Origin: a virus
Lineage: Duplodnaviria > Heunggongvirae > Uroviricota > Caudoviricetes
Virus record (IMG/VR): IMGVR_UViG_2548877011_000015
DNA: 37,974 nt
Strand: one strand, 5' to 3'
Shown here: piece by piece, positions 2,913-35,119 of the stretch
How the letters are laid out: every line of letters begins with the position of its first letter
Position numbering within the stretch: position 1 is the first letter of the stretch
Translations under genes and position numbers: made by a program
The notes under the pieces: model-generated
What the model was told of the DNA's origin: nothing
Databases searched by the model: none
Seen by the model: the letters and a program-made list of their open reading frames with translations, nothing else

Positions 2913-3113
2913 ATGCTGACGAAAGAACCATCATTTGCATCGCTGCTGGTAAAACAAAGTCCGGCAATGCACTACGGTCACGGCTGGATCATGGGTGAGG
3001 ATGGTAAACGCTGGCATCCGTGCCGTTCACAAGATGAATTGCTGGCAGAACTATCTACGAAAAAACGGGGGAACAAATGGCTATTGAAGGCGCTGCGGCG
3101 ACTGTTCCATTAA
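2913..3113 (+). CDS. small early protein (Fil-like position), hypothetical
   Basis: ATG at 2913 with GAGGTG SD 5 nt upstream; 66 aa; position corresponds to fil in 186. Confidence 0.4.
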   Translation: MLTKEPSFASLLVKQSPAMHYGHGWIMGEDGKRWHPCRSQDELLAELSTKKRGNKWLLKALRRLFH

Positions 3114-3418
3114 GACCCGGTGAACGCCTGAATGGACTTAATCATATTGCGGAGTTAAGGGCGAAAGTTTTTGGTTTGAATATTGAGTCAGAGCTTGAGC
3201 GGTTTATTAAAGATATGCGTGATCCTCGGGATATCAATAATGAACAAAATAAACGGGCACTGGCTGCCATATTCTTTATGGCAAAAATTCCAGCTGAACG
3301 TCATTGCATCAGCATTAATGAGCTGACCACTGACGAAAAGCGGGAGTTGATTAAAGCAATGAATCATTTTCGTGCAGTGGTGAGCTTATTTCCCAGACGG
3401 CTAACCATGCCGAATTAA
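3077..3418 (+). CDS. hypothetical early protein (113 aa)
   Basis: ORF track; ATG at 3077 with GGGGGAA SD; overlaps upstream gene end, suggesting translational coupling. Confidence 0.5.
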   Translation: MAIEGAAATVPLRPGERLNGLNHIAELRAKVFGLNIESELERFIKDMRDPRDINNEQNKRALAAIFFMAKIPAERHCISINELTTDEKRELIKAMNHFRAVVSLFPRRLTMPN

Positions 3419-3485
3419 CCAACTAATGAAATTAATGGCGTAAACCCGCCGGGCATCCCTTTATCTAAATTCAGGAGAATTGCTT

Positions 3486-3719
3486 ATGCGTAATATTGAA
3501 ACCCTCACGACCAAAACCGGACCGGATGATGCAGGTCTTAATCTTTTACTGACAGAGGCTCGTCTGGAAGAACGCCGGGCAAGGGCTGAAGCAATGGCTG
3601 CTCGCCTCGATAGCCTGGCGTGTCATATCACCTCCCGCCAGCTAAACCACGTCGAAGCGGCAGAACTGCTGCGTGTGACTGCTGAAGCAATCCAGAACGA
3701 AGCGCAGGAGATCCACTGA
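3486..3719 (+). CDS. hypothetical early protein (77 aa)
   Basis: ATG at 3486 with AGGAG 8 nt upstream (track start 3480 is a TTG). Confidence 0.5.
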   Translation: MRNIETLTTKTGPDDAGLNLLLTEARLEERRARAEAMAARLDSLACHITSRQLNHVEAAELLRVTAEAIQNEAQEIH

Positions 3720-4802: not shown

Positions 4803-5624
4803 ATGCACCACGGAATTCATCATTTCCATGGGACGCCTGTCTGGGGAAGTGCTGGCGACGTTCATCGTATTGCGGTGAGCGGAGCTGGCGCTTTCGTCTC
4901 CTATGTACGGCCAGATCAGATTGCGGCGTCCATTCAGCACGCTCAGGTCGTCGGCATTGATAACGGCGCATTTTCTGCATGGGTGCGTGGGCTAAAAATT
5001 AACTGGAGTGATTTTTATAAATGGCTCCTGAACTATTACCACCATCCTAAGGTCGCTTTTTTTGTCATTCCTGATGTTGTGGACGGAGGTGAACGTGACA
5101 ATGATGCCCTGATAAACGAAGTTCCGAAAATGTTCTACGGGAAGGCAACTCCCGTCTGGCATCTGCACGAGTCAATCGATCGGCTTATCGAGCTATGTCG
5201 TGAATGGCCTCGTGTCTGCTTTGGATCTTCTGGTGAATATGCGGCTATCAGAACTGCGCACTGGCATCGTCGTATGCAGGACGCTTTTGAAGCAATTTAT
5301 TGCCGACACAATTTCAAAACAGCTGTTCATGGTTTGCGCATGCTTGACGGTCGTGTGTTGGGAAATTACCCACTGGCGACTGCCGACAGTACAAATCTTG
5401 CCTGCAATGTCCCCAAATTTAATAGCAAATATCCTGAGCTGACGCGGGCTATTCAGGAGGCTGAGTATTCGCGCAATCTGACGGAAAAGGAGCTGAAAGC
5501 TGTCATTCTGAAAAACCGTTGCGCAATTTTAAAAGGTGCAATTGAAGCTGTTCGCCCACCTTCAGTTTCTGATTGGCTGTCGAATGGTTTGCAGCCTTCA
5601 CAGCTCGAACTGGAGATTGCGTAA
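4803..5624 (+). CDS. conserved early-region protein of unknown function (273 aa)
   Basis: ORF track 4794..5624 (GTG 4794 or ATG 4803); sits between dam and replication gene A; no motif confidently recognised (loose DxGxF / GSSG resemblance only). Confidence 0.5.
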
Positions 5625-7996
5625 TGAACTACAGCTATTCCTGGAATGCTGAGAAAAAAGCAATCAATCCTTACGTAGAGACAGAAGAGCAATCTTCAGT
5701 TTCTGCGCTTTCAAACCTGATCGCTCTGTACGCTGCCGATAACGAGCAGGAACAGCTGCGCCGCGAGGCACTGAGTGATCAGGTCTGGGAGCGTTATTTC
5801 TTTAATGAATCCCGTGATCCTGTCCAGCGCGAAATGGAGCAGGATAAGCTCATTAGTCGGGCAAAGCTGGCGCATGAGCAGCAGCGTTTTAATCCAGATA
5901 TGGTCATTCTGGCGGACGTCAATGCCCAGCCTTCCCATATCAGCAAGCCGCTGATGCAACGTATTGAATACTTCAGCAGCCTGGGCAGGCCAAAGGCTTA
6001 TTCCCGCTATTTGCGTGAGACGATTAAGCCATGTCTGGAACGGCTGGAGCATGTACGCGACTGTCAGCTATCCACTTCTTTTCGCTTTATGGCAAGCCAT
6101 GAAGGGCTGGACGGCCTGCTGATCCTGCCTGAAATGAGTCAGGATCAGGTGAAACGCCTGTCCACCCTGGTAGCTGCGCATATGAGCATGTGCCTTGATG
6201 CAGCTTGTGGCGATTTGTATGTCACCGATGACGTTAAGCCAGAAGAAATCCGCAAAACATGGGAAAAGGTGGCAGCGGAAACCCTGCATCTGGATGTCAT
6301 CCCGCCTGCGTTTGAGCAACTCCGCCGGAAAAGAAACCGCCGTAAACCCGTGCCCTATGAACTCATTCCGGGTTCGCTGGCGCGTATGTTGTGCGCTGAC
6401 TGGTGGTACCGGAAATTATGGAAGATGCGTTGCGAATGGCGGGAAGAGCAGTTGCGTGCTGTCTGCCTGGTCAGCAAAAAAGCATCTCCCTATGTCAGCT
6501 ATGAAGCCGTGATGCATAAACGTGAGCAGCGCCGTAAGTCGCTGGAGTTTTTTCGTTCTCATGAACTGGTGAACGAAGACGGCGACACGCTGGACATGGA
6601 GGATGTGGTAAACGCCAGCAGCAGCAACCCTGCGCATCGCCGCAATGAGATGATGGCCTGTGTTAAAGGCCTGGAGCTTATCGCGGAAATGCGCGGTGAC
6701 TGCGCCGTTTTCTACACCATCACCTGTCCGTCACGTTTCCATTCCACGCTAAATAATGGCAGGCCCAACCCAACTTGGACAAATGCGACGGTAAGACAAA
6801 GCAGTGATTATCTGGTCGGCATGTTTGCTGCATTTCGTAAGGCGATGCACAAAGCCGGATTGCGGTGGTATGGCGTGCGGGTGGCTGAGCCGCATCATGA
6901 CGGTACAGTTCACTGGCACCTGTTGTGTTTTATGCGCAAAAAAGACCGCCGCGCCATCACTGCATTACTGCGTAAGTTTGCCATCCGTGAAGACCGCGAG
7001 GAACTGGGCAATAACACTGGGCCGCGCTTTAAGTCTGAGTTGATTAACCCGCGCAAAGGTACGCCAACAAGCTACATCGCGAAATACATCAGTAAGAACA
7101 TTGACGGGCGTGGTCTGGCTGGCGAGATCAGCAAGGAAACGGGGAAATCCCTGCGTGATAATGCTGAATACGTTAATGCCTGGGCGTCTCTGCATCGTGT
7201 TCAGCAATTCCGCTTCTTTGGCATTCCGGGGCGTCAGGCTTACCGTGAACTGCGATTGCTGGCTGGTCAGGCGGCAAGGCAACAGGGGGACAAAAAAGCA
7301 GGTGCGCGGGTACTGGATAACCCGCGCCTTGATGCCATCCTGGCTGCTGCTGATGCTGGTTGTTTTGCTACCTACATCATGAAGCAGGGCGGCGTACTGG
7401 TTCCCCGCAAATATCACCTCATCAGAACCGCTTATGAAATCAACGAAGAGCCGACCGCCTATGGCGATCACGGCATTCGTATTTATGGCATCTGGTCACC
7501 TATTGCAGAGGGCAAGATCTGCACTCATGCCGTGAAGTGGAAAATGGTTCGTAAGGCCGTTGATGTTCAGGAGGCGGCAGCCGACCAGGGCGCTTGCGCC
7601 CCTTGGACTCGTGGCAATAACTGTCCCCTTGCTGAAAATTTGAACCAACAGGAGAAAGATAAATCAGCTGATGGGGACCCCAGAACGGACATTACCAGCA
7701 TGGATGACAAGGAGTTGCACGATTACCTGCACAGTATGAACAAAAAAGAGCGCCGGGAACTGGCTGCAAGGGTACGCCTGGTGAAACCGAAACGGCGTAA
7801 AGACTACAAACAGCAAATTACAGACCATCAGAGACTGCAGCTCGTCTATGAGCTGAAGTCCAGAGGATTTGATGGTAGCGAGAAAGAGGTCGATTTACTC
7901 CTTCGCGGCGGCAGTATTCCGTCAGGAGCAGGCCTGCGTATCTTCTATCGGAACCAGCGTTTGCAAGAAGATGATCAGTGGCGGAACCTGTATTAA
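5624..7996 (+). CDS. A: replication initiation protein A (rolling-circle nickase, P2 gpA-like)
   Basis: 790 aa from ATG at 5624 (TAATG overlap with upstream gene); size and position of P2/186 gene A; contains the paired-tyrosine region YIAKYISK. Confidence 0.85.
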
Positions 7997-8149: not shown

Positions 8150-8338
8150 ATGCAGGACTATTTTTTGGAGTCTTTGAAGCTCCAGCGCATTGATTTTTTT
8201 CTTAAGCTTGTAGCGGCTAGTGAGTGTAGTGATGAAGAGAAGGGGCTGGCTCTGCAGTGGGTTTCTGAATTGACTGATGAACTCATGGCAAAAATCAGAA
8301 CCCACGAATACAACCGCTCAATGGATGTCATCAGCTGA
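8150..8338 (+). CDS. Tum-like SOS-inducible protein, N-terminal ORF (62 aa)
   Basis: ATG at 8150 with AGGAGGA SD; directly downstream of the LexA box, in the position of 186 tum. Confidence 0.45.
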   Translation: MQDYFLESLKLQRIDFFLKLVAASECSDEEKGLALQWVSELTDELMAKIRTHEYNRSMDVIS

Positions 8339-8348
8339 GGTGACTTTT

Positions 8349-8582
8349 ATGCGCATTGAAATAATGATCGATAAAGAGCAGAAGATTAGCCAGTCTACCC
8401 TGGACGCCCTTGAATCCGAGCTTTACCGCAATCTGCGCCCCCTGTATCCCAAAACGGTAATTCGTATCCGTAAAGGTAGCTCTAACGGTGTGGAACTGAC
8501 CGGACTGCAACTGGATGAAGAAAGAAAACAAGTGATGAAAATTATGCAGAAGGTGTGGGAAGACGACAGCTGGCTGCATTAA
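8349..8582 (+). CDS. DinI-family protein
   Basis: 77 aa MRIEIMIDKEQKISQSTLDALESELYRNLRPLYPKTVIRIRKGSSNGVELTGL...WEDDSWL is collinear with E. coli DinI (MRIEV...); GAGGTG SD upstream. Confidence 0.8.
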   Translation: MRIEIMIDKEQKISQSTLDALESELYRNLRPLYPKTVIRIRKGSSNGVELTGLQLDEERKQVMKIMQKVWEDDSWLH

Positions 8583-8590
8583 GAAACGTT

Positions 8591-8620
8591 GCCCCCAAGA
8601 GGATTTATCCTGTTGGGGGG
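8591..8620 (+). terminator. stem-loop after DinI-like gene (terminator candidate)
   Basis: gcccccaagaggat tt atcctgttggggg imperfect palindrome immediately after the stop, followed by a weak T stretch (agtttggg). Confidence 0.4.
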
Positions 8621-9070
8621 AGTTTGGGCAACGAGTGAAATGAGGTGTAAGGTGGGCGGTCATTTTGATAAGTGATCGTCCACTTTGTGTCAGAACCTGA
8701 TGTTTGTTGTACATTCGGACGAATAGGCGGCGTTGTTTGCTTTAAAAATAAAACAGGAACACTTTGAGAAAGTGAACAGGTGTATTTATTTGTTGCTGAT
8801 GAATGAGAGTAACTCTAATTTGGATAATTAGCTTGATAATAGGTCAGACGAAAATAATATTCCAGCACACTTTTGGTCGCAACAGGCATTAGTTAATTTT
8901 AAGTGATAAATTTTTATCCATAAATTAACACTAGTGTGTCATCTAGCGAAACCGAATCGCTTTAACTCATAACTTGAAGTTGAATCAGTGGGGTAGCAGT
9001 AGGCATGCCGGAACTGATAAACTGTGCAGAAGGCTAAACATTCATTCACTCGTGAGATAGTAGCTAAATT

Positions 9071-9937
9071 ATGCAAAGAATTATTCCTGATAAAAATTGG
9101 TGGGAAAAAGAGCGTATTAATCGTAAAGCATCATCAATATGCCCATATGCTAGTTCATACAGATGTCCTCGATACTATCAGAGTGTAGTTTTGCTCTCAA
9201 GCATCAATGTGATAGCTGGTATGGCAACTAGGAAAGAAAAAGAGTTGGGTGAATTTTGGGAAAGAACCACTTTCTCATCTTTATGTGATGAAGAAGTCCC
9301 TACAGTTACTACAAAAGAATATGGCGGCCTTGCATCAGTTAGTAATTTTTGCCCAGAAATATCATTTAGATATTTACACTACTACGCCGATTATATGTGT
9401 AAATATGTTGATGAGATAGATCAGGACACTGGCAGGCGTATTGCGGAAAAAGATAATTTAGAAAATGATTGGAAATATACATGGATGTCAGTCAATCCTA
9501 AATTTTATTTAGATTGCGATGTTTTTGAAAGTGTCAAAAATTTCAATGAAGAATTGGCTAGTGATTACTTAAAAAGATTGCACCCAAATATCGTTCAGCA
9601 AATAGATAGAATGAATAATTGCTTGGATAATAATGATCCGGCAGGTGCACTGCACGCAGCCTCTAATATTTTAGAAACTATGGCTAAGGAAATCACTCAA
9701 AACCCGAATGTGGCAAATGAGTCATTGGGTGGTTTTTTTAAACAGTTCGAAAAAATGTCAAAATTACCTAAGAATCTTATTGATGCTGTTAAAGATATTT
9801 ATGATTTACGCAACAAATTACCTACTGCTGGACACGGAAGCTTGAACAAGCCTGAATTGACTATGGTAGAAGCTATAACTATTGCGGCAATGACAAAGGC
9901 GATTTTAGAAATTGAATATCGAAGCAAAGCCATCTAA
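9071..9937 (+). CDS. hypothetical protein (288 aa), accessory island; possible Abi-like
   Basis: ATG at 9071; low-GC; N-terminal Cys cluster CPYASSYRCPRYY; C-terminal LRNKLPTAGHGS (R-N...G-H-G) reminiscent of Abi_C/HEPN-type motifs; occupies the P2 tin/old hotspot between the replication module and cos. Confidence 0.5.
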   Translation: MQRIIPDKNWWEKERINRKASSICPYASSYRCPRYYQSVVLLSSINVIAGMATRKEKELGEFWERTTFSSLCDEEVPTVTTKEYGGLASVSNFCPEISFRYLHYYADYMCKYVDEIDQDTGRRIAEKDNLENDWKYTWMSVNPKFYLDCDVFESVKNFNEELASDYLKRLHPNIVQQIDRMNNCLDNNDPAGALHAASNILETMAKEITQNPNVANESLGGFFKQFEKMSKLPKNLIDAVKDIYDLRNKLPTAGHGSLNKPELTMVEAITIAAMTKAILEIEYRSKAI

Positions 9938-10064
9938 CAAACCAAATTATGTGGTTCAAATTCCCGCTACACTTCTGTGTTGCCGCCAGCGTCTACTTAT
10001 CGCTGTGAGTTCAACGGGTGATGATGCGTTAGAGATCTCTGAATCGATTGAAGTCTAAGGTTGT

Positions 10065-10086
10065 CAGGGCTGTAACAGCAGCCCTG
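10065..10086. terminator. perfect 8-bp stem hairpin between convergent genes
   Basis: cagggctg taacag cagccctg between the 3' ends of the 9071..9937 (+) and 10187..10840 (-) genes. Confidence 0.35.
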
Positions 10087-10186
10087 TGTCATGAATGGAT
10101 TGCATATTAATTGACGAAGAACAGACTAATATCATCGATAGCTGTTTTCAAAAATAGACCAATAACAAACTGAGATGTTATCGTAT

Positions 10187-10840
10187 TCATTTCGATGATT
10201 GATCCAGATGTGTATATAACCATTGAAAGAGTTTTCTAATTTTTGTGATAGTATCTTTTAAATAATTTAAGGAGATTATTATATTATTTTCATTGTTTAA
10301 TGAAAGAGTAGGTGTTTTATCAATGATATTTTTTAAGGCTACAGCTGTGCTCATTTTTTTAATGTCTCCATTAGCATGAACTATGCAATTCCTTACTTTG
10401 TTAAACTCTGTCATGAATTGCCACTCTTGTGACAGGCCAAAGTTTATATCCATTAATTTTGTTAAATATCTTTTTGCTTTGTGGATGCCATCACCATTAA
10501 AATCGGTTACTGATATATTGGTGTTTACAATCCTTTGACATATATTGCAATAGTCGTTTAGGTTGTGCTCTAAGCATGAGTATAAAGATACCAAAGCAGA
10601 TTTATTAAAAATATTTGGTTGTATGTTAACTAAGAAATCATATTGCTCTGAATAATAGTCTTCTAAGTAATTAATATAATCGTCAGGAGCATTCTTTTTT
10701 TCATCTTCATATGCTTTTTTTAATTCCGCTAAGTCAACTCTGTTTTGGCCGCCTGCTCCTAGGATATATTTTTCGAAATCATCAATCTGCGCTTCAAGTG
10801 AATATCTTGATAGCTGTGCGAAAAGTTTGTATTTACTCAT
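10187..10840 (-). CDS. hypothetical protein (217 aa) with HEPN-like Rx4H motif
   Basis: ATG at 10838-10840; low-GC; VRNCIVHANG matches the R-x4-H HEPN signature near the C-terminal third; accessory hotspot location. Confidence 0.5.
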   Translation of the reverse strand: MSKYKLFAQLSRYSLEAQIDDFEKYILGAGGQNRVDLAELKKAYEDEKKNAPDDYINYLEDYYSEQYDFLVNIQPNIFNKSALVSLYSCLEHNLNDYCNICQRIVNTNISVTDFNGDGIHKAKRYLTKLMDINFGLSQEWQFMTEFNKVRNCIVHANGDIKKMSTAVALKNIIDKTPTLSLNNENNIIISLNYLKDTITKIRKLFQWLYTHLDQSSK

Positions 10841-11183
10841 CGGTATGCCATTCCTTTTTAATTATAAACCTTTGGATTAAAAGGTGCTGAAAATAGTAAC
10901 TCATTATTTTTGTTTGTAAAGGGGGTATTGTTTTTACTAGATCAAGATAAAACAATGGGAATATCCGCTTTTCGCTCACAGCGGACTTTCATCTTTGTAA
11001 ACCCGTATGATTAGCTTTTCAGCGGTCATTCAGATACGGATTTACGCTTCCCTTGGCTGTGCATGACTATGACGCATGAGATCGCATGATCGTTAGAGGA
11101 TCGTTTTTGCTGAGGCCAGCCAGAACTGGCGTGCTTTTGCTTATGTCGTGCAGGTGCATGAAAACCACTACATAAAGCGGGCA

Positions 11184-11202
11184 GGCGTGGCGGGGATACG
11201 AT
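11184..11202. other. cos-like cohesive-end site
   Basis: ggcgtggcggggatacgat followed by tgcgcgct, compared with the P2 left end GGCGAGGCGGGGAAAGCAC TGCGCGCT as recalled from memory; sits in a GC-normal segment (about 10960-11220) between two AT-rich islands. Confidence 0.5.
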
Positions 11203-11270
11203 TGCGCGCTAGGTATAAGTGTGTAAAATAATTCCAAAATAAATCATCCTAATGAAGTGAGAGGGTAATA

Positions 11271-12920
11271 ATGTTAGTCAAGAAAAATAAAAATTATAGT
11301 TTATATTTTTTAATTACAAATAATCAACAGATATCTGATTCTGGTAATTATATAAAAATAGTCCCATCAAGAAGCGATTGGAATGATTTTGGATATTTGA
11401 GTAGAGTCGAAATATCTATTTTTAATAAAAAAGAGTGTAAGGATATAATTTCACTGAATGGTTATATTGGTTTTTTGAATTCAGAGGAGGAACGAAATGG
11501 AAAAGCAGAACTGATAAGGCGAGTGAAGAAAAAGGAAGAATCTAATTTAAAGGATGAGGGGTTTAATGATTATTTTGTCATGCTTCAGGATATGAATAAT
11601 TATCGAAGACTAGTAAGATTTTTTGGGGTGAATGAATCCAAATATATATTAAATTTCATTAATGATGTTGTTTCTAAGAAAAGTGACGCTAGTGCAGAGA
11701 ATTTGAGGAAAAAAGCAATCTCTTCTGATATCTTTAATAAATCTTTCATTAGAGAGTCTGAGTCGTATTTTACTTTCAAAAATGCAGGAACAGTTCTTTC
11801 CGGTATTCAATATGAGGAGTTGGGTAATTTATCACAGCACATCAAGATTAGCTATTCGAATAAAGTTAATGAAGAAGATGTATCTTATGTTTTTAATTTT
11901 GATCACGAGCATGATTTACCAAAAAGAATTTCCATAATTATAGGCGAGAATGGTGTAGGAAAAAGCCAAACGCTTAGAGAAATCGCATTGGCTGCGATTA
12001 AAGGAAAGGATAATTTGGTGGCTGTAGTTGATTCTAACGGTGTGAGCATTGAAGAACGAATTCAAATTAGTAGGCTCATTGCTTTTTCTCCAACAAATGA
12101 AAGTAAGTGTTCATTTCCAACCGATAAAAGAATAAAATCATTGATATGGTACAAAAGATTGACTTTAAATCGTGAATCAAAATCCAAATTAAACTTGAAT
12201 GATTTAATAGTGCAACTAGCGAGGAGTAACGACGCTATCGGCTATAATCAAAGGTGGAATATATTTGTTGATGCACTGAGTGTTCTAAATAGTAACAACG
12301 ATTTAGTAATCAAATGTAGCGGTGAAAATTCACCATTTGTTAAATTAAATGAGCTTAATTCTCGAGGCGAAGAATCCAGACTATCATTATATTCTGAAAT
12401 TATTCTCTCTGGCGAGCCTTTGAGGCTTGTTGAAAATAAATGTTACCCTTTGAGTAGTGGGGAAATATCGTTTATTAAGTTTTGTGTACAAGTCTGTTTG
12501 TATATTGAGAATGGGACTCTTCTATTAATAGATGAGCCAGAAACACATCTCCATCCTTCATTTATTAATAAATTTATGGCATTGCTTGATAATTTATTAG
12601 AAAAGACAGGCTCTTCAGCTATCATAGCAACGCATTCGGTTTATCTTGTTCGGGAGGTTTTTAAGGAGCAAGTGACAATACTCAGAAGACGAGATGATGG
12701 GGTAATTGTTAGCGAAAAACCGAGATTGAGTACTTTTGGGGCGAATATAGGAAATATCTCATATTTTGTTTTCGGTGAGAGTGAACCAACTCAAATTTTA
12801 AATAAAGTAAAAAATAATATAATTGCAAAGAATATGTCTTGGGATGATGTTGAATCTAAATATAGCGAGGACTTATCACTTAATGTATTAACTGCGTTGA
12901 GAAATGAAATAGGTAATTGA
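11271..12920 (+). CDS. ABC/SMC-like ATPase with N-terminal extension (Septu PtuA-like)
   Basis: 549 aa; Walker A GENGVGKS (~aa 225), Walker B LLLIDEPETHLHP (~aa 417), H-loop ATHS; ~215-aa N-terminal domain of unknown type; GAGGGT SD; low-GC; stop is 1 nt before the next gene's start. Confidence 0.7.
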   Translation: MLVKKNKNYSLYFLITNNQQISDSGNYIKIVPSRSDWNDFGYLSRVEISIFNKKECKDIISLNGYIGFLNSEEERNGKAELIRRVKKKEESNLKDEGFNDYFVMLQDMNNYRRLVRFFGVNESKYILNFINDVVSKKSDASAENLRKKAISSDIFNKSFIRESESYFTFKNAGTVLSGIQYEELGNLSQHIKISYSNKVNEEDVSYVFNFDHEHDLPKRISIIIGENGVGKSQTLREIALAAIKGKDNLVAVVDSNGVSIEERIQISRLIAFSPTNESKCSFPTDKRIKSLIWYKRLTLNRESKSKLNLNDLIVQLARSNDAIGYNQRWNIFVDALSVLNSNNDLVIKCSGENSPFVKLNELNSRGEESRLSLYSEIILSGEPLRLVENKCYPLSSGEISFIKFCVQVCLYIENGTLLLIDEPETHLHPSFINKFMALLDNLLEKTGSSAIIATHSVYLVREVFKEQVTILRRRDDGVIVSEKPRLSTFGANIGNISYFVFGESEPTQILNKVKNNIIAKNMSWDDVESKYSEDLSLNVLTALRNEIGN

Positions 12921-12921
12921 A

Positions 12922-13785
12922 ATGAATAAATTAAAAAGACCTGTTTTTAAAGATTATTCTGCATTTAAAAAACTATCTGCAAATAAGAGATTAAAACATC
13001 ATTCTGTTCTGAATGGACAGGATACATTTATACTTAATGCATATAGATCGTACATAAAGAATAAAGGATATCTTAATGTCAATTCTTGTGGCGTATTGAG
13101 TAACAATATTGCTGAAGCTTTGAAATATTATTATAACAATCCCGCAAAGTGTTTATCTATAATTGATGATATAAGAGCAGCTAATTCTAACTCTCTATGT
13201 CCAATGTGTGGTTCAATGCATAGCGGGACTTTGGATCATGTTTTACCCAAGGAAAACTATCCAGAATTTTCTTTATTCACTAAGAATTTGGTTCCTGCTT
13301 GCAAATGTAATACTTTCAAAAGTACTACTATAGCTAATTCTGCAGGCCATCGGATGCTGCATCCATATTTTGATAATATATTAAAACAAAGATTAATATG
13401 TGCTAATTTTTCTAAATTAGGGCGAACACCTACAATTGATGTAAAAATCATAATTGACCCAATGTCACCAGAATATAACAATGTTAAGTATCATCTTGAT
13501 AATGTTGTTATCAAGAATAATATTAAGGGGTATTTGTCTGAACAATGGGAGTCGTTTTACTTATATCCTGAGCTTGTTATTAGAGGACTGAATAAGAGTC
13601 TTTCTACTTATAGCGATGTATATGAGTTGTTGACTCGCGAGTTGTTGCTGTTGGATGAAAAACATAAAGGTAAAAATAATTGGAATTCGGTTTTTGTAGC
13701 TGGGTTAATTCGACCTGATGTGATTAGGTGGATACTCTGTGAATTACATTTAGGTAACAGAAGTCCAGACGGTCGTCTCATATGA
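12922..13785 (+). CDS. HNH endonuclease (Septu PtuB-like)
   Basis: 287 aa; HNH core CPMCGSMHSGTLDHVLPKENYPEF...NLVPACKCN; tightly coupled to the upstream ATPase. Confidence 0.7.
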   Translation: MNKLKRPVFKDYSAFKKLSANKRLKHHSVLNGQDTFILNAYRSYIKNKGYLNVNSCGVLSNNIAEALKYYYNNPAKCLSIIDDIRAANSNSLCPMCGSMHSGTLDHVLPKENYPEFSLFTKNLVPACKCNTFKSTTIANSAGHRMLHPYFDNILKQRLICANFSKLGRTPTIDVKIIIDPMSPEYNNVKYHLDNVVIKNNIKGYLSEQWESFYLYPELVIRGLNKSLSTYSDVYELLTRELLLLDEKHKGKNNWNSVFVAGLIRPDVIRWILCELHLGNRSPDGRLI

Positions 13786-14924: not shown

Positions 14925-16690
14925 CAAAAAATCTCCACAATATTGCTGGTATTGGCGGATTCGCCCTGCAGCGGTTCGTTAAACAATGCGTGCATCGTTG
15001 CCCAGGCCAGATCGGCGTGGCTGGCTTCTTCGCTGCGGCTGGCTTCATAGGTTGGGCGGTTGCCACTGGCGGTGGTGGCGCGACGGATTGCCATGAATGA
15101 CTGCGCAATGTCGGTGTGCCCGGCGTCAAACTCCAGACGGCGGTGGCTGATAATGTCGTAGGCCTTGAGTACCAGGGCGTTTTTAACGTTGGGGTTGTAG
15201 ACAAACTCCCGGACGGCAGGAAAGAACGCTTTCACGTTCTCATAAACCCCGTGACCAACGCCGGTCGAGTCGATACCGATGTATGTCACGTTGTACTGTT
15301 CAGTCAGTTTTTTGATGGCATCAGCCTGGGCGCGAAAGTCCATCCCGCGCCACTGGTGACGCTCAAGAATGCGGAACTTGCCGCCCGGCACGGCTGGCGG
15401 AGCCACCACCACGCATCCGGCACTGTCGCCGTTCTGCGTACCTTTTGCCGGGTCATAACCGATCCACACTTCGCGCCAGCCAAACGGGCGCAGGGCCAGT
15501 GCATGAAAATCGGTCCAGACTTCCCAGCTGTCCACCATACACGCCTGCAGTTCGCTGAGCGGGAACACGGACGCGAGATCGTCCACAAACTCGCACATCA
15601 GCAGGTTCTGGTATTCGTCCGGGCTGTACTCCATGCGCAACTGGTCAAGGTCGAACAGGTTACAGCCGCCGCGCACTGCATCTTCCACGGTGACTATCTG
15701 GCGGTACTGCCCGTCTGCGCACAGCAGGCCGGGGGCCAGATTGCTGTGGGACAGGTCGATGTCCACCTTATCGGCTTTATTGCGCCCACGGTTGAACAGC
15801 GCACCGGACCAGAACGGATAAGCACTGTGTGTCAGGCTGGATGGCGTGGAAAAATAGGTTTGTCGCCATTTTTTGTGGATAGCCATACCGGAAGCCACTT
15901 TGCGCAGCTCCTGGAATTTCGGTATCCAGAAATATTCATCCAGATACAGGTTGCCGTGGTAACTCTGGGCCGTGCGGGCATTGGTGCCGAGGAAGTAAAG
16001 CGTGGCTCCGTTAGGAAGCACCATCGGATCGCCTTTCAGCTCCACCTCGACTTCTTTGGCGAAGTCTATGATGTACTGCTTAAAGACGTGAGCCTGTGCC
16101 TTGCTGGCGGAAAGAAAAATCTGGTTACGTCCGGTAAGCAGAGCGTCAATCAGGGCTTCACGGGCAAAGTAAAAGGTCGCGCCGATCTGGCGTGACTTCA
16201 GCAGGTTGCGGATGCGGTTGGTTTTTCCGGCTTCCCACCAGTGGCGCTGGTAGTTAAACATGGAGGAATGGAAGATTTCTTCCAGCTTCTCAATCTGCTC
16301 ATCGGTGAAAACATTCTTTTCCGGCTGACGGCGCGGGCCTTTGTTGCGGTTGGCGACGTTAGGGTTTAAGTCGGCTTCGTTGCCGCCATTGTTAAACTTG
16401 CCGATCCGCGCGTGGCGCTCCGACTGGCGCGCCAGCAGGTCAATTTCTTTGAAATCTTTCCCTTCTTTGTGCTCCTTCATAATGAGCTGGCAGTAGCGTG
16501 CGGCGGTGGTGAGCTGCATCTGATCCAGCGGCCCATAGTCACCCCACTTGTCGCGTTTTTTCCAGCTGTGAACGGTTGCAACTTTCTCGCCCAGCATTTC
16601 AGCAATGCGGGCGACGCGGTATCCCTGAAAGTACAGCAGCATGGCCTGCCGACGGGGATCGAGATCTGCGGGTGTCAGTGTGGTGTTCAT
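14924..16690 (-). CDS. P: terminase large (ATPase) subunit (P2 gpP-like)
   Basis: 588 aa, P2 gpP size and position; divergent from the O-N-M operon. Confidence 0.85.
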   Translation of the reverse strand: MNTTLTPADLDPRRQAMLLYFQGYRVARIAEMLGEKVATVHSWKKRDKWGDYGPLDQMQLTTAARYCQLIMKEHKEGKDFKEIDLLARQSERHARIGKFNNGGNEADLNPNVANRNKGPRRQPEKNVFTDEQIEKLEEIFHSSMFNYQRHWWEAGKTNRIRNLLKSRQIGATFYFAREALIDALLTGRNQIFLSASKAQAHVFKQYIIDFAKEVEVELKGDPMVLPNGATLYFLGTNARTAQSYHGNLYLDEYFWIPKFQELRKVASGMAIHKKWRQTYFSTPSSLTHSAYPFWSGALFNRGRNKADKVDIDLSHSNLAPGLLCADGQYRQIVTVEDAVRGGCNLFDLDQLRMEYSPDEYQNLLMCEFVDDLASVFPLSELQACMVDSWEVWTDFHALALRPFGWREVWIGYDPAKGTQNGDSAGCVVVAPPAVPGGKFRILERHQWRGMDFRAQADAIKKLTEQYNVTYIGIDSTGVGHGVYENVKAFFPAVREFVYNPNVKNALVLKAYDIISHRRLEFDAGHTDIAQSFMAIRRATTASGNRPTYEASRSEEASHADLAWATMHALFNEPLQGESANTSNIVEIF

Positions 16691-16832
16691 GGCACAAACC
16701 TACAGCCTTGAATGACGGCTTTCCCCGCCTGCGGTTTGTGTGGTTGTCGGTACAAATACCGCGCATTGTTTCACTGCCCCCATCACCGCAACCATAAGGC
16801 TCCAGTAAGTTTTTTCTAACGGAGCACGGCTC

Positions 16833-21807: not shown

Positions 21808-22201
21808 AGCGGTGCCTTATGTCCGCAATAACCCGGAAAAACTGCATCTGTTTGTGGATAACGGTTCGCTGGTTGCCACGGGGGCCAGCTCCATGTCGTG
21901 GGAGTACCGTTACACCCTGAACGCGGTGATTGAGGATTTCAGCGGCGACCAGAATCTGTTGATGGCCCCGGTTTTACTGTGGCTGAGGGATAACCAGCCC
22001 GTTGCCATCAATAACCCGGCGTTACGGGAAAAACAATTCACCTTTGAGGTGGATATTCTGCGCAACGATGTCTGTGATATCAGCTTGAACCTGCAACTGA
22101 CGGAACGTGTGCTGGTCAGCACTGACGGCAGTGTGTCGAGCGTTGAAGCTGTAGCGGAACCCGATGAACCTGAAGAAATGTGGACGGTGAAACGTGGCTG
22201 A
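21770..22201 (+). CDS. R: tail completion protein R (P2 gpR-like)
   Basis: GTG at 21770 with AGGAG 8 nt upstream; track ORF 21749..22201; P2 R position and size. Confidence 0.7.
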   Translation: MNKPQSLRHALNKAVPYVRNNPEKLHLFVDNGSLVATGASSMSWEYRYTLNAVIEDFSGDQNLLMAPVLLWLRDNQPVAINNPALREKQFTFEVDILRNDVCDISLNLQLTERVLVSTDGSVSSVEAVAEPDEPEEMWTVKRG

Positions 22202-22646
22202 ACTGCAGAAAGTGGACGACTGGCTGAGTGCCTTGCTGGCGAATCTGGAACCAGCCGCCAGAAGCCGCATGATGCGCCAGCTGGCGCAGGAACTGCGCCG
22301 GACACAGCAGCAGAATATCAGGATGCAGCGCAACCCTGACGGCAGCAGCTATGAACCGCGACGGGTAACAGCACGAAGTAAAAAAGGGCGCATCAAACGT
22401 CAGATGTTTGCAAAGCTGCGCACCACAAAATACCTGAAAACCGCCGCCAGCGCGGATTCTGCCAGCGTACAGTTTGAAGGTAAGGTGCAGCGCATTGCCC
22501 GCGTTCATCATTACGGCCTGCGCGATCGCGTCAGTCCAAAGGGGGGAGTCATTAAGTATCCATCCCGAAAATTGCTGGGTTTAAATGAACATACTGAAAA
22601 TGAAGTAAGAGATTTACTTTTAAAGTATTTTTTGATGAAAAATTAG
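22194..22646 (+). CDS. S: tail completion protein S (P2 gpS-like)
   Basis: 150 aa, GTG start overlapping R stop; C-terminal YPSRKLLG motif as I recall it from gpS-family proteins. Confidence 0.7.
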   Translation: MAELQKVDDWLSALLANLEPAARSRMMRQLAQELRRTQQQNIRMQRNPDGSSYEPRRVTARSKKGRIKRQMFAKLRTTKYLKTAASADSASVQFEGKVQRIARVHHYGLRDRVSPKGGVIKYPSRKLLGLNEHTENEVRDLLLKYFLMKN

Positions 22647-22651
22647 AATGT

Positions 22652-23182
22652 TTACGCACTTAATAAACTTAAATAACTTTTTATGCTTTGGCAAAAAGGG
22701 AAAAGGTCTATTTTAATTTTCCAGTTTTTTTTGTTTTGAACCCCAGAAGCAATAATAGAACCATCCCAATATTTTATTCCATTTTTGCCGGTCTTTTTTG
22801 TTAACTCAAAACTTAATGCGTGAATAATTTTATTGCAGCATTCGCGTATAGAACCTTTAACATGACCATCTATAACAAAAAGTATATTTTCATGTTCTTC
22901 AAATGCTTCTTTCTCAGGTGAGTAATCTGGGTTCCACTCATGTTCACTAGTGTCTTGGAGAATTCGTAGTTTTGTACAAAGGCTAATAAGATTGTTGCTA
23001 ATGGTATATTCCAACCATCCGTTGTACGATAACTCCTCCATTTCAAATTCAGTTACTATAGAATCATCATATACTTTCTGTGTGGAATATATACGCTGTA
23101 AATAAAATTCAGATGAACAGCATAATTGCTCAATTATTCTTGCGTGTTCTTCTATAGCGTAATAATCAATTGGATGGCTCAT
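22652..23182 (-). CDS. hypothetical protein (176 aa), moron at the P2 orf30 site
   Basis: Low-GC gene on the opposite strand, inserted between tail genes S and V; ATG at 23180-23182 with AAAGG SD (track ORF extends to 23221). Confidence 0.55.
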   Translation of the reverse strand: MSHPIDYYAIEEHARIIEQLCCSSEFYLQRIYSTQKVYDDSIVTEFEMEELSYNGWLEYTISNNLISLCTKLRILQDTSEHEWNPDYSPEKEAFEEHENILFVIDGHVKGSIRECCNKIIHALSFELTKKTGKNGIKYWDGSIIASGVQNKKNWKIKIDLFPFCQSIKSYLSLLSA

Positions 23183-23277
23183 TCTTTTACCTTTCTTCGA
23201 TTGGAATTGTATTTGTGTCATTTACCACACAAGGACGTATTGATGCCATAGATTCAAGGTCCGTGCAACCTAACCCT

Positions 23278-23856
23278 ATGAACGCACAACTAACCGAAAT
23301 CATGCGCCTTATCACCAACCTGATCCGCACTGGGGTAGTCACCGAAGTGGATCGGGAGAACTGGCTTTGCCGGGTGAAAACGGGCGAGCTTGAAACCAAC
23401 TGGATCAGCTGGCTGACGCTGCGTGCCGGAAATGCCCGGACATGGTGGCGACCATCGGAAGGTGAGCAGGTGGTGCTGCTGAGTCTGGGCGGCAATCTGG
23501 AGACTGCCTTTGCGCTGCCCGCTGTCTATTCGAATCAGTTCGCACCACCGTCGACGTCGGCGGACGCCTGCGTGACAGAACATCCTGACGGTGGCTGGTT
23601 TGAATACGAACCCGCCACCGGGCGCTGGTATGTCAGGGGCATCAAATCAATGGTCATTGAGGCCGCTGACAACATCACCCTGAAAACCAATGAGTTTGTA
23701 CTGGAGGCTGACCGCACGCGCATTAACAGCGAAGTGGTGATCAATGGTGGCGTTACCCAGGGCGGCGGAGCGATGAGTTCTAACGGGATCGTGGTTGATG
23801 CGCATCAGCATACTGGCGTCCTGAAAGGCGGCGACACAACCGGAGGCCCGGTATGA
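23278..23856 (+). CDS. V: baseplate spike/assembly protein V (P2 gpV-like)
   Basis: 192 aa from ATG at 23278; P2 V position; Gly-rich C-terminus. Confidence 0.8.
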   Translation: MNAQLTEIMRLITNLIRTGVVTEVDRENWLCRVKTGELETNWISWLTLRAGNARTWWRPSEGEQVVLLSLGGNLETAFALPAVYSNQFAPPSTSADACVTEHPDGGWFEYEPATGRWYVRGIKSMVIEAADNITLKTNEFVLEADRTRINSEVVINGGVTQGGGAMSSNGIVVDAHQHTGVLKGGDTTGGPV

Positions 23857-25107: not shown

Positions 25108-25705
25108 TCTGCTGCCACCGGGTTCAACACCACTGGAGCGCCGACTGGCGCAAACCTGCAGCGGGATTTCTGATCTGCAGGTGCCGCTTCGTGACTTGTG
25201 GAATCCGGCAACCTGTCCGGTCAGTTTCCTGCCTTATCTCGCCTGGGCGTTCTCTGTAGATCGCTGGGACGAGGGCTGGACAGAAAGCGTCAAGCGCCAG
25301 GTGGTGAAGGATGCTTTTTATATTCATCAGCATAAAGGGACCACCAGTGCCGTGCGGCGGGTGGTGGAGCCGTTCGGCTTTCTGATCCGCATTATTGAGT
25401 GGTGGCAGACCGGAGAGGCACCGGGCACGTTTCGCCTGGATATCGGCGTGCAGGACCAGGGTATCACTGAAGATACCTATCTGGAACTTGAGCGACTGAT
25501 AAGCGATGCCAAACCATGTAGCCGCCACATGATCGGCATATCCATCAATCTGCAGACCAGCGGCCCGCATTGGGTGGGAGCCGCCAGCTATCTTGGCGAA
25601 GAAATCACGATCTATCCGTATATCAACGAAACGATTATTTCCGGTGGCACCGCGCATGAAGGCGGGGCGGTCCATGTTATTGACACAATGAGAGTGAATC
25701 CATGA
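25100..25705 (+). CDS. I: baseplate/tail protein I
   Basis: 201 aa, overlaps J stop; P2 gpI position. Confidence 0.75.
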   Translation: MNSLLPPGSTPLERRLAQTCSGISDLQVPLRDLWNPATCPVSFLPYLAWAFSVDRWDEGWTESVKRQVVKDAFYIHQHKGTTSAVRRVVEPFGFLIRIIEWWQTGEAPGTFRLDIGVQDQGITEDTYLELERLISDAKPCSRHMIGISINLQTSGPHWVGAASYLGEEITIYPYINETIISGGTAHEGGAVHVIDTMRVNP

Positions 25706-27453
25706 GCACAAAATTTTATACCCTGCTGACGGATATTGGCGCGGCGAAACTTGCCAGCGCCACCGCGCTCGGTGTGCCGCTAAAAATTACCCATATGGCG
25801 GTGGGCGATGGCGGCGGAGTATTGCCAACGCCGGACGCAAAGCAGACGGCACTGGTAAATGAGAAACGCCGGGCTGCGCTGAATATGCTTTATATCGACC
25901 CGCAGAACAGCAGCCAGATTATTGCTGAACAGGTGATCCCTGAAAACGAGGGCGGTTGGTGGATACGTGAAGTGGGCTTGTTTGATGAGTCCGGGGCATT
26001 GATTGCCGTGGGTAACTGCCCGGAAAGCTATAAGCCGCAACTGGCTGAAGGCAGTGGGCGTACCCAGACCGTGCGCATGGTGCTGATTACCAGCAGTACG
26101 GACAATATCATCCTGAAAATCGACCCTGCTGTAGTGCTGGCAACCCGCAAGTATGTGGATGACAAAATATCAGAGCACGAACAGTCACGACGTCACCCGG
26201 ACGCCTCGCTGACCGCAAAAGGTTTTACTCAGTTAAGCAGTGCGACCAACAGTGAATCCGAAATACTGGCCGCAACACCGAAGGCTGTGAAGGCTGCATA
26301 TGATCTTGCAGCAGGTAAAGCATCCGCCAGTCACACACACCCGTGGAATCAGATAACGGATGTGCCTGCAGCTTCACTGACGGTAAAAGGCACCGTGCAA
26401 CTCAGCAGCGCCACTAACAGCACGTCAGAAATGCAGGCTGCCACACCAAAGGCAGTGAAGGCGGCATATGACCTTGCAGCAGGTAAGGCACCTGTCAGTC
26501 ACACGCACCCGTGGAGCCAGATAACAGATGTGCCTGCAGCTTCACTGACGGTAAAAGGCACCGTGCAACTCAGCAGCGCTACTAACAGCACGTCAGAAAC
26601 GCAGGCTGCCACACCAAAAGCCGTGAAGGCTGTATATGACCTTGCCAATGGAAAACAACCTGCCGACGCCACACTGACCGCACTGGCAGGCCTTGCCACT
26701 GCGGCAGACAAACTTCCGTATTTTACGGGGAATGATACAGCCAGCCTGACAACCCTGACTAACGTTGGACGGAATATTCTGGATAAAGCAAGCACACAGG
26801 CGGTTATTCAATATCTTGGTCTGAGCGATGCAAGTGGATACGTTGGACGCTGGCTGAATACCCGGGTTTTCACCTCATCAGGTACGTACACCACGACGCC
26901 AGGAACAAAACGGATTAGGGTCACAATAACGGGCGGCGGTGGCGGAGGGGGCGGCTGCAAGGCTATATCCAATAATGAAACGTTTTTCGGTGCTGGCGGC
27001 GGGGCAGGTGGGACAGTAATCACCACGCTGATCCTGACGAAGGATAGTTATCCTGTCACTATCGGCGCAGGTGGGGCCGGCGGCGTTAGTGCGACGAACG
27101 GCCTCAAGGGCGGTGATAGCTCGTTCGGATCGGTAATAGCCCCTGGTGGTGAAGGTGGTGGAAAATCAGGAGTCACAAACACGAACGGTGGTAACGGCGG
27201 TGTGCCAAGTACTGGCGGTATCAACATCATTGGTGGAAATGGAGGCGACGGTCAGTCCGGAAATATCGGCGTCAGCGGTGAAGGCGGAACATCGCACTGG
27301 GGTGGCGGTGGACGCGCAGGCGCTGGCGGTGGTGTTAGTGGTAAGGCATATGGTTCAGGTGGCGGTGGCGCATACGATGCCGGTTATAGCGGAACCAGTA
27401 TGACAGGCGGGAAAGGTGCCGCTGGGATTTGTATTATCGAGGAGTTTGCATAA
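25702..27453 (+). CDS. H: tail fiber protein H with internal tandem repeats and Gly-rich C-terminal domain
   Basis: 583 aa; conserved P2-type N-terminus; three ~56-aa tail-fibre repeats (SLTVKGTVQLSSATNS...AATPKAVKAAYDLA...HTHPW); C-terminal ~170 aa is 35-40% Gly. Confidence 0.85.
   Translation: MSTKFYTLLTDIGAAKLASATALGVPLKITHMAVGDGGGVLPTPDAKQTALVNEKRRAALNMLYIDPQNSSQIIAEQVIPENEGGWWIREVGLFDESGALIAVGNCPESYKPQLAEGSGRTQTVRMVLITSSTDNIILKIDPAVVLATRKYVDDKISEHEQSRRHPDASLTAKGFTQLSSATNSESEILAATPKAVKAAYDLAAGKASASHTHPWNQITDVPAASLTVKGTVQLSSATNSTSEMQAATPKAVKAAYDLAAGKAPVSHTHPWSQITDVPAASLTVKGTVQLSSATNSTSETQAATPKAVKAVYDLANGKQPADATLTALAGLATAADKLPYFTGNDTASLTTLTNVGRNILDKASTQAVIQYLGLSDASGYVGRWLNTRVFTSSGTYTTTPGTKRIRVTITGGGGGGGGCKAISNNETFFGAGGGAGGTVITTLILTKDSYPVTIGAGGAGGVSATNGLKGGDSSFGSVIAPGGEGGGKSGVTNTNGGNGGVPSTGGINIIGGNGGDGQSGNIGVSGEGGTSHWGGGGRAGAGGGVSGKAYGSGGGGAYDAGYSGTSMTGGKGAAGICIIEEFA
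26203..26658 (+). repeat. 168-bp tandem repeat (about 2.7 copies) inside the tail fiber gene
   Basis: Copies start near 26203, 26371 and 26539; copies 2 and 3 are nearly identical at the DNA level. Confidence 0.8.
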
Positions 27454-27866: not shown

Positions 27867-27972
27867 ATACCGTCATTTTGTGTGAATAACGGTACAACTG
27901 CGCTTAGCTGCTTGTCAGACACAATCACTTCAACATAGGGCGAAGCCTAATCCAATCAGGAGGTTCGCCACT

Positions 27973-34900: not shown

Positions 34901-35119
34901 ATGATGATTTGCCCACTGTGTGGAAGTGCCGCCCATACTCGCAGCAGTTTTCAGGTATCTTCATTGACCAAAGAGCGTTACAACCAGTGCCAGAACATTA
35001 ACTGCAGCCATACTTTTGTTACCCATGAAACTTTTGTTCGTTCGATTGCAACGCCAAAAGAGTCAAATCCGGTTCAGCCGCATCCAATGAAATCAGGACA
35101 GGTGGCGCTCTCTCTTTGA
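34901..35119 (+). CDS. ogr: Ogr/Delta-family zinc-finger late gene activator
   Basis: 72 aa from ATG at 34901; MMICPLCGSAAHTRSS...KERYNQCQNINCSHTF carries the CxxC...CxxxxC finger and resembles P2 Ogr as I recall it. Confidence 0.85.
   Translation: MMICPLCGSAAHTRSSFQVSSLTKERYNQCQNINCSHTFVTHETFVRSIATPKESNPVQPHPMKSGQVALSL

Follow-up and report, generated by a model that had tools for sequence, protein, structure and literature searches.

We analyzed a 37,974-nt stretch of DNA, IMG/VR virus record IMGVR_UViG_2548877011_000015 (hereafter, the window), and in particular a single AT-rich gene that lies antisense between its tail genes S and V. A complete P2-like prophage of Escherichia coli makes up the window; it runs from the integrase gene (1-1053) to ogr (34901-35119) and adjoins ybjL. 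The gene under study (22652-23182, minus strand; WP_000019233.1) encodes a protein of 176 amino acids (aa) and is almost certainly an accessory, or "moron," cargo gene carried on a cassette at the known variable S-V hotspot. Its most likely function would be anti-phage defense, a role toward which we lean slightly because of guilt by association, expression in the lysogen, and an enzyme-like pattern of conservation.

The placement of the cargo gene is supported by its neighbors, which were assigned by Pfam as gpR (PF06891, 2.8e-45), gpS (PF05069, 6.8e-42), and gpV (PF04717, 6.2e-18, plus Apex), and a matching layout is found in the P2 record and in RefSeq. S (22194-22646, plus strand; Phage_tail_S over residues 3-146) is the tail completion gene, while V (23278-23856, plus strand; Phage_base_V and Apex) encodes the baseplate spike and is the first gene of the V late operon. 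The flanking late genes have a G+C fraction (GC) of 0.55-0.60, which drops to 0.27-0.37 across the cargo block. Over the whole block (22546-23264; 719 bp) it is 0.321, against a window mean of 0.498 (standard deviation 0.081 for 719-nt windows), and the contrast with the flanks is what would be expected of cargo of foreign origin in such a hotspot.

The gene is real and under purifying selection, because the ratio of nonsynonymous to synonymous substitutions (dN/dS) against the Salmonella orthologue, with 75% aa identity, is 0.10, and because it is transcribed in LF82 lysogens, as described below. Mechanical calling of the open reading frame (ORF) from the first ATG gives 22652-23221 (minus strand) and a protein of 189 aa; the 176-aa form begins at the ATG at 23182. 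We regard the shorter form as correct, since 15 of 15 close homologues begin with MSHP, Met occupies that column in 92% of 115 family members, RefSeq annotates 22652-23182, and the 13 extra codons of the longer form overlap the activator site of the late promoter pV.

The slot between S and V is a gap between two late transcription units and not the interior of an operon. In the P2 record, S closes the O operon with a putative terminator, followed by Orf30, which is antisense and marked "nonessential," and then by an activator-binding site and pV; the end of the O operon thus precedes Orf30 and the start of pV follows it. The cargo gene resembles P2 orf30 in being antisense between the S stop and the pV activator site, and in being AT-rich, dispensable, and variable among relatives. 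P2 orf30 itself is counted among the AT-rich loci that P2-like phages have acquired horizontally. The two proteins, however, have no detectable sequence relation (BLASTP E of 0.21; hhalign probability of 0.6%) and differ in length (176 versus 261 aa).

Alignment with other alleles, together with GC, delimits an exchangeable cassette at 22546-23264, made up of the 3' end of S, the cargo gene on the opposite strand, and the promoter/activator region of pV. Compared with an empty S-V site, homology is lost at about 22545, some 33 codons before the S stop, and regained at about 23265, some 12 nt before the V ATG. The same two breakpoints were seen in all of nine further alleles, of which one was empty and eight carried different genes. 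Between the breakpoints the DNA is unrelated from allele to allele, and identity returns at the V ATG or just 5' of it. The S and cargo stop codons are only 5 nt apart, and a promoter and terminator scan found no terminator-like site. No flanking direct repeats or other scars of transposition or site-specific insertion were found in the block, and the short repeats within it resemble chance matches in AT-rich DNA. Because the breakpoints are shared and insertion scars are lacking, we take the exchange unit to be the S C terminus, the cargo, and the pV promoter together, swapped by homologous recombination in S and V, with V as the right-hand anchor.

The last 20 to 33 residues of gpS, an essential tail completion protein, differ allele by allele, giving it a hypervariable C terminus. 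It was also observed, in loci L002-L010 and L024 as well as in the window, that this C terminus (about 33 codons, 22546-22646, in the window) covaries with the S-V cargo allele, the rest of S being 90 to 100% conserved at the DNA level.

The 95 nt between the cargo and V start codons (23183-23277) form a divergent regulatory region, with the 5' signals of the cargo gene on the minus strand and the pV late promoter on the plus strand. A TGT-N12-ACA element at 23214-23231 is kept about 46 nt 5' of the V start in all nine other alleles, with an offset of 1 to 2 nt in two of them (L007 and L010). We take this element to be an Ogr/Delta-type activator site, as in established P2 biology, and the P2 record annotates an activator site there. 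Further elements upstream of late-operon starts were found at 16679-16696, 16737-16754, and 27879-27896, with copies 46 nt before P (terminase ATPase), 78 nt before O, and 76 nt before FI (sheath). The sites before P, O, V, and FI match the four Ogr-dependent late promoters of P2, and that at V is probably the activator site of pV; taken alone, the pattern is about as frequent as chance would give in the window (10 occurrences against 9.3 expected), which also carries the ogr gene noted above. For the cargo gene, the minus strand offers a Shine-Dalgarno-like AAAGG (23194-23190) and, as the best -10 candidate, TACAAT (23211-23206), although a consensus scan found neither a sigma-70 promoter nor an intrinsic terminator for it. 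Since the -10 candidate abuts the TGT-N12-ACA site, it is possible, judging from the layout of these signals, that Ogr binding shuts the cargo gene off during the lytic cycle. An Rfam search of the block found no RNA.

The contents of the slot vary widely. S and V flanks were found in 1,042 of 5,426 complete E. coli genomes and the cargo cassette in 22 of the 5,426, all at 99% identity or more, with LF82 among them. A rank-spread sample of E. coli P2-like prophages gave 49 rows that included both flanks: the slot was empty in 31 (about 60%), carried the studied cargo gene in 2, and carried other genes in 16. These were DUF6216 genes (6, the E. coli B lineage included), unrelated hypotheticals (5), FRG (2), DUF5677 (1), DUF2971 (1), and SIR2 (1). 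At least nine unrelated single genes serve as alternative contents, and S-V cargos are antisense throughout, with the exception of SIR2. Three of nine alternative cargos tested with PADLOC, P2 Orf30 included, gave matches: FRG to PDC-S15, DUF2971 to PDC-S31, and SIR2 to ThsA/LmuA-type models. The studied gene shares with these three its slot, breakpoints, single-gene format, and mostly antisense orientation. It differs from them in being unrelated in sequence and in belonging to an uncatalogued family, while they are already catalogued as candidates. In E. coli B derivatives (AS19 and T7Express; locus L003, e.g., NZ_CP027430.1 605752-607966), the DUF6216 gene in the slot runs about 59 nt into the end of S, on the opposite strand, and has no PADLOC match.

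Both recent movement and long residence are apparent for the cassette. By tblastn it was found in the phage collection only in Cartapus, the LF82 prophage, and among plasmids there was one match, a distant family member on a 292-kb Vibrio anguillarum replicon. Between the window and Cartapus, the cassette is 99.2% identical, compared with 94.5% for R and the 5' part of S, 97.2% for V and W, and 89.3% for lysB/C. Because the cassette is thus more conserved than its flanks between the two E. coli prophages, the comparison indicates that it moved recently between diverged backbones. The Salmonella cassette has diverged about as much as its flanks (75 to 79%), and by this measure the association with the P2-like backbone is also old. 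In E. coli, Salmonella, and Enterobacter, orthologues with 57 to 100% identity are found at this position beside V. All 18 of 18 IMG/VR relatives adjoin V, and S was detected on the other side in 16.

Transcription of the cargo gene can be followed in its LF82 orthologue, which is 99% identical and is listed as CARTA_14/LF82_787. Strand-specific RNA sequencing of LF82 (S1 Table, whose legend names LB, DMEM, and macrophage conditions; PMC9928086) gives CARTA_14 values of log2(fpkm+5), where fpkm is fragments per kilobase per million reads, of 5.06 and 5.16 in the two replicates of B1, 5.89 and 5.97 in B6, 5.11 and 5.28 in MB1, 4.57 and 4.38 in MB6, and 3.51 and 2.71 in LB overnight (PMC9928086). 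The adjoining S and V genes stayed at 2.3 to 3.3 throughout, save for V at about 4.2 in MB6 (PMC9928086). As CARTA_14 stood at 5.1 to 6.0 in three of the five conditions, with S and V at 2.3 to 3.3 there, the orthologue is transcribed in the lysogen independently of the late genes, as befits a moron. We also considered whether LF82_789, designated a "moron," was the cargo gene; it is not, since LF82_789 is CARTA_47 and lies at another locus.

These results confirm, in every part open to testing, a sequence-only reading of the window, which had pointed out the 176-aa antisense ORF in a sharply AT-rich block between S and V, equated its position with that of P2 orf30, and anticipated that the S-V interval would prove variable and the gene without a conserved virion role. 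The mostly empty or differently filled slots and the rarity of the cargo gene among P2-like phages bear out the last two points, and its standing as candidate cargo gains from the lysogenic transcription and from the three allelic cargos that match defense or candidate-defense models. Two elements of that description have to be amended. The gene was called inserted, and it is indeed a cargo locus, but it belongs to an allelic cassette that is swapped through recombination in S and V and is not a simple insertion. It was also placed opposite in strand to a surrounding late operon, and while the strand is right, the site lies between two operons and not within one. As for a promoter of its own at 23183-23277, what the check yielded is the TACAAT candidate.

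The cargo protein belongs to an undescribed family that is already present in databases under the name "hypothetical"; the type of locus is known, and a specialist would not find it surprising. A first search gave 16 clusters, and an exhaustive profile search gave 468 representatives at E of 1e-3 or less, nearly all of 170 to 210 aa. A profile search of a 5.8-billion-sequence set returned only proteins called "hypothetical protein," with no Pfam label, from Gammaproteobacteria, Alphaproteobacteria, Cyanobacteria, and metagenomes. The window protein itself had no match in Pfam, NCBIfam, or PADLOC (for PADLOC, none at E of 10 or less), and in PHROGs it matched only phrog_18838, of unknown function. 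Pfam scans of 15 and of 115 family members gave noise only, with no HEPN-clan family among the matches listed at E of 1 to 10 or less, and a PADLOC scan of the 115 members gave only scattered single matches at E of 7e-4 or more. Sequence searches of PDB with two profiles returned nothing meaningful, Foldseek found nothing at E of 0.001 or less in PDB or BFVD, and hhalign comparisons of the family profile revealed no relationship with DUF5677, two hypothetical S-V cargos, or P2 Orf30.

Outside P2-like phages, distant members (34 to 45% identity) are solitary genes that are AT-rich even in GC-rich genomes; one in a Chloroflexia metagenome-assembled genome, for example, has a GC of 0.38 against a background of 0.56-0.61. 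In Aliivibrio sp. S4MY1 (NZ_JARACP010000031.1; L018, 2500-10500), the gene (6001-6546) lies between repeats of about 130 nt (TAACAAA...GCGTTA), of which there are at least eight in the array. We take this array to be a chromosomal integron by its likeness to Vibrio attC/VCR sites. The cassettes next to the family member include a Peptidase_U49 gene (4805-5866) and a ParE-like pair (3015-3640); Peptidase_U49 is the family of the Lit abortive-infection protease. Among Pseudoalteromonas members, one is beside a DUF2971 gene and another beside an AAA_23/DUF2326 ATPase and a Y1 transposase, and a member on a metagenome contig is beside a DUF5677 gene and an SbcC-like ATPase. A Mesorhizobium member follows an integrase, and a Brevundimonas member lies in an island with ParB, IS110, and a Pol-beta/HEPN protein. 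DUF2971 and DUF5677 thus recur both as neighbors of the family and as alternative S-V cargos.

No partner gene is common to all these contexts, and the single protein therefore carries the function on its own. In Brevundimonas and related contigs (L025-L028), the family member (6001-6609) is followed 7 nt on, on the same strand, by a conserved ORF of 285 aa (6616-7473) without a Pfam match. This ORF, which the enterobacterial cassette lacks, may be a partner specific to this alphaproteobacterial branch. A toxin-antitoxin module was considered and rejected, as the cassette holds a single gene with no partner, no neighbor is conserved across contexts, and Rfam found no RNA.

A confident AlphaFold2 model of the cargo protein has a predicted local distance difference test score (pLDDT) of 90.2 and a predicted template modeling score (pTM) of 0.86. 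It contains helices at residues 7-34, 45-78, 89-95, 112-120, and 160-175 and strands at 101-105, 124-131, 137-149, and 152-159. In the model, helices 7-34, 45-78, 112-120, and 160-175 would form a HEPN-like four-helix core that is weakly similar to HEPN ribonucleases (RNases), and a three-stranded beta-meander is inserted between the motif helix and the last helix. Conservation, computed over 115 family members, is concentrated in a polar cluster. A near-invariant R-E-x-C-N-K-x-x-H sequence lies on helix 112-120, with H121 as the first loop residue (R113, 95%; E114, 81%; C116, 83%; N117, 99%; K118, 98%; H121, 99%), and Rx3Nx3H is present in 109 of the 115. The corresponding codons in the window, R113-E-C-C-N117-K118-I-I-H121 (22820-22846, minus strand), mark a candidate active-site helix. 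R73-x3-D77 closes helix 2 (R73, 99%; D77, 88%, plus 7% Glu), and G147 (97%) and W154 (98%) are also conserved. An N-terminal M-x-H (codons at 23174-23182, minus strand) is a further family feature, with H3 at 80% and Tyr at 14% in that column, in a part that is disordered in the model (pLDDT below 50).

In HEPN domains, a conserved Arg and His stand in helix 3 and at its boundary with a loop, an acidic residue stands in helix 2, and inserts occur between helices 2 and 3 (PMC3710099). R113 in helix 112-120, H121 at the helix-3/loop boundary, and D77 at the end of helix 2 take the positions described there. The end of helix 2 reads R-x3-D, where the paper has E-x3-[KR] (PMC3710099). The R-x7-H spacing is also that of the catalytic R146 and H154 of RAZR, a validated DUF4145-type HEPN defense RNase (PMC13017515). 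RAZR/PD-T7-4, which joins a zinc finger to the HEPN domain, is a single-protein abortive-infection RNase (PMC13017515). In contrast, the cargo protein begins with a long predicted helix and has no Cys4 zinc ribbon, it has the beta-meander insert, and neither DUF4145 nor PD-T7-4 was among the models listed as matching its 115 family members. Compared with the integron-cassette HEPN protein Vpc_cass2 (PDB 3jrt; PMC3710099, PMC3548836), it has no detectable sequence similarity and a different motif spacing, and its insert is beta-stranded where that of Vpc_cass2 is helical. Unlike the HepT/DUF86 toxins (5yep_B, 7ae2_A, 1ylm_B), it has no MNT antitoxin partner, is larger, carries a beta-sheet insert, has Rx7H in place of Rx4H, and shows no profile match.

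The mechanism best supported is that the protein works like a HEPN RNase, which we consider plausible but put forward tentatively. As an explanation of all the evidence, a lysogen-expressed, single-protein abortive-infection RNase carried on an allelic cassette comes close to an even proposition without quite reaching it. On this explanation, homologous recombination within S and V, both conserved, exchanges the cassette between phages, and each allele brings its own S C terminus and pV promoter. The cargo protein would be made at a low level in the lysogen and be inactive there, until a protein or process of a superinfecting phage, the presumed trigger, switched it on. RNA would then be cleaved, perhaps by a dimer, through R113, N117, K118, and H121 with help from R73 and D77. 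Translation would stop and the infection abort, as with single-protein HEPN defenses such as RAZR. A more specific proposal is that the family is an unrecognized branch of HEPN-like RNases. Its members would be stand-alone abortive-infection effectors of about 180 aa, with an expanded catalytic helix and a trigger-sensing beta insert, spread via P2 S-V slots and integron arrays and perhaps self-silenced in the lytic cycle; this proposal we hold to be doubtful.

Several observations weigh against an abortive-infection RNase. The Rx7H spacing is outside the classical Rx4-6H and so departs from the HEPN motif (PMC3710099), the residue after R113 is Glu (E114) and not the usual Asn, Asp, or His (PMC3710099), and HEPN domains are not known to carry a beta-sheet between helices 3 and 4. 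The conserved residues are predicted to cluster in one site from helical periodicity only. None of the 115 diverse members showed a profile or sequence link to a HEPN family, DUF4145, PD-T7-4, or a defense model, and a literature search by accession found no publication mentioning the cargo protein. About two-thirds of the alternative S-V cargos, P2 Orf30 included, are without a defense annotation in PADLOC, and CARTA_14 falls under the authors' 5-fold "moron" threshold in LB overnight (PMC9928086). Membership of the family in the HEPN superfamily is therefore unproven: taken literally, it departs from one defining feature, and it has no profile match.

It is also conceivable, if unlikely, that the cargo defends against phages or mobile elements by a non-HEPN mechanism, in which the cluster of Arg, Asn, Lys, His, and Cys might bind or modify a nucleotide, a cofactor, a metal, or a phage protein. 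The hotspot and mobilome context would fit such a mechanism, as would the failure to find a convincing fold match, the alpha+beta architecture unlike known HEPN domains, and the conservation of C116 and H3, which have no part in canonical HEPN chemistry; what speaks for the HEPN-like mechanism instead is the placement of R113, H121, and D77. We give somewhat less credence to a host-directed stress or dormancy toxin, or another moron that serves lysogen fitness apart from defense. The rise of CARTA_14 from near background in LB overnight to log2 values of about 5 to 6 in other columns (PMC9928086) is compatible with such a role, and so is the occurrence of family members as integron cassettes and solitary chromosomal genes, given that Anantharaman et al. 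hypothesize a dormancy-inducing RNase role for integron-cassette HEPN proteins (PMC3710099). Yet the cassette has no antitoxin-like partner, SIR2, FRG, and DUF2971 genes found in this very slot match defense or candidate-defense models, and elsewhere the neighbors include a Lit-like protease and ATPases typical of defense islands.

A role in the service of the phage itself, be it counter-defense, modulation of lysogeny or induction, or optional help in morphogenesis tied to the gpS C terminus, seems to us the most improbable of these alternatives. The cargo does travel with a private gpS C terminus and abuts the pV activator site, and the similar divergence of cassette and backbone in Salmonella speaks for a long-standing association. 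However, every allele has its own S tail, whatever its cargo, and the gene is antisense to the late genes and transcribed while they are silent. Most P2-like phages do without it and are viable with an empty slot, and homologues occur outside phages in integron arrays and chromosomal islands. Defense, superinfection exclusion, and lysogenic conversion had all been proposed by the sequence-only reading, which had also found no recognizable structural role. Defense stays a candidate. Membrane-type superinfection exclusion and surface conversion were rejected, since neither a hydrophobic segment nor a signal peptide can be seen in the sequence; by this inspection, the protein is soluble and has no membrane segment.

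Prophage hotspots have been productive sources of new bacterial immune genes, and the S-V slot has been studied far less than P2's old/tin and Z/fun. Defense hotspots "within the tail genes" and "downstream of GpL" are noted in recent surveys of P2-like phages (PMC13586616), and the detailed work on P2 hotspots concerns the gpA-portal (old/tin) and Z/fun loci (PMC9122126; bioRxiv 10.1101/2024.10.15.618418). The cargo gene adds a concrete single-gene candidate with a clear candidate active site, from a family of several hundred members that is absent from Pfam, NCBIfam, and PADLOC. The picture of the slot, with recombination in S and V and a retained TGT-N12-ACA element, could be used to harvest other unknown cargos, such as DUF6216, DUF5677, and several hypotheticals. 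Should the HEPN-like reading be true, the family would provide a second R-x7-H example after RAZR and link a P2 cargo to the integron-cassette HEPN proteins; should it be wrong, the gene would still be a clean example of an ordinary prophage moron.

Elsewhere in the prophage, the S-V block is one of three low-GC islands. At the main P2 hotspot between gpA and the portal gene (8150-13785), GC goes down to 0.285. This region carries an AAA ATPase and HNH endonuclease pair (11271-12920 and 12922-13785) that matches PADLOC PDC-M01A/B and PtuA and is Septu-like, along with two unknown genes at 9071-9937 and 10187-10840 (the latter on the minus strand, with a weak RTasHEPN match at E of 1e-5). In the third island (776-2300), where GC has a minimum of 0.355, lie the 3' part of the integrase gene, a small hypothetical gene at 1240-1431, and the gene for the CI repressor at 1447-2016, and its low GC suggests that the immunity region of the prophage is mosaic as well. 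Finally, the tail fiber gene (25702-27453) contains tandem repeats of about 168 nt (56 aa) at 26268-27453, with one unit fewer in the window than in the otherwise near-identical prophage of NZ_CP148579.1. The distal part of the fiber shows scattered differences from that record from about 26337 on, and downstream coordinates are shifted by -168 relative to it.

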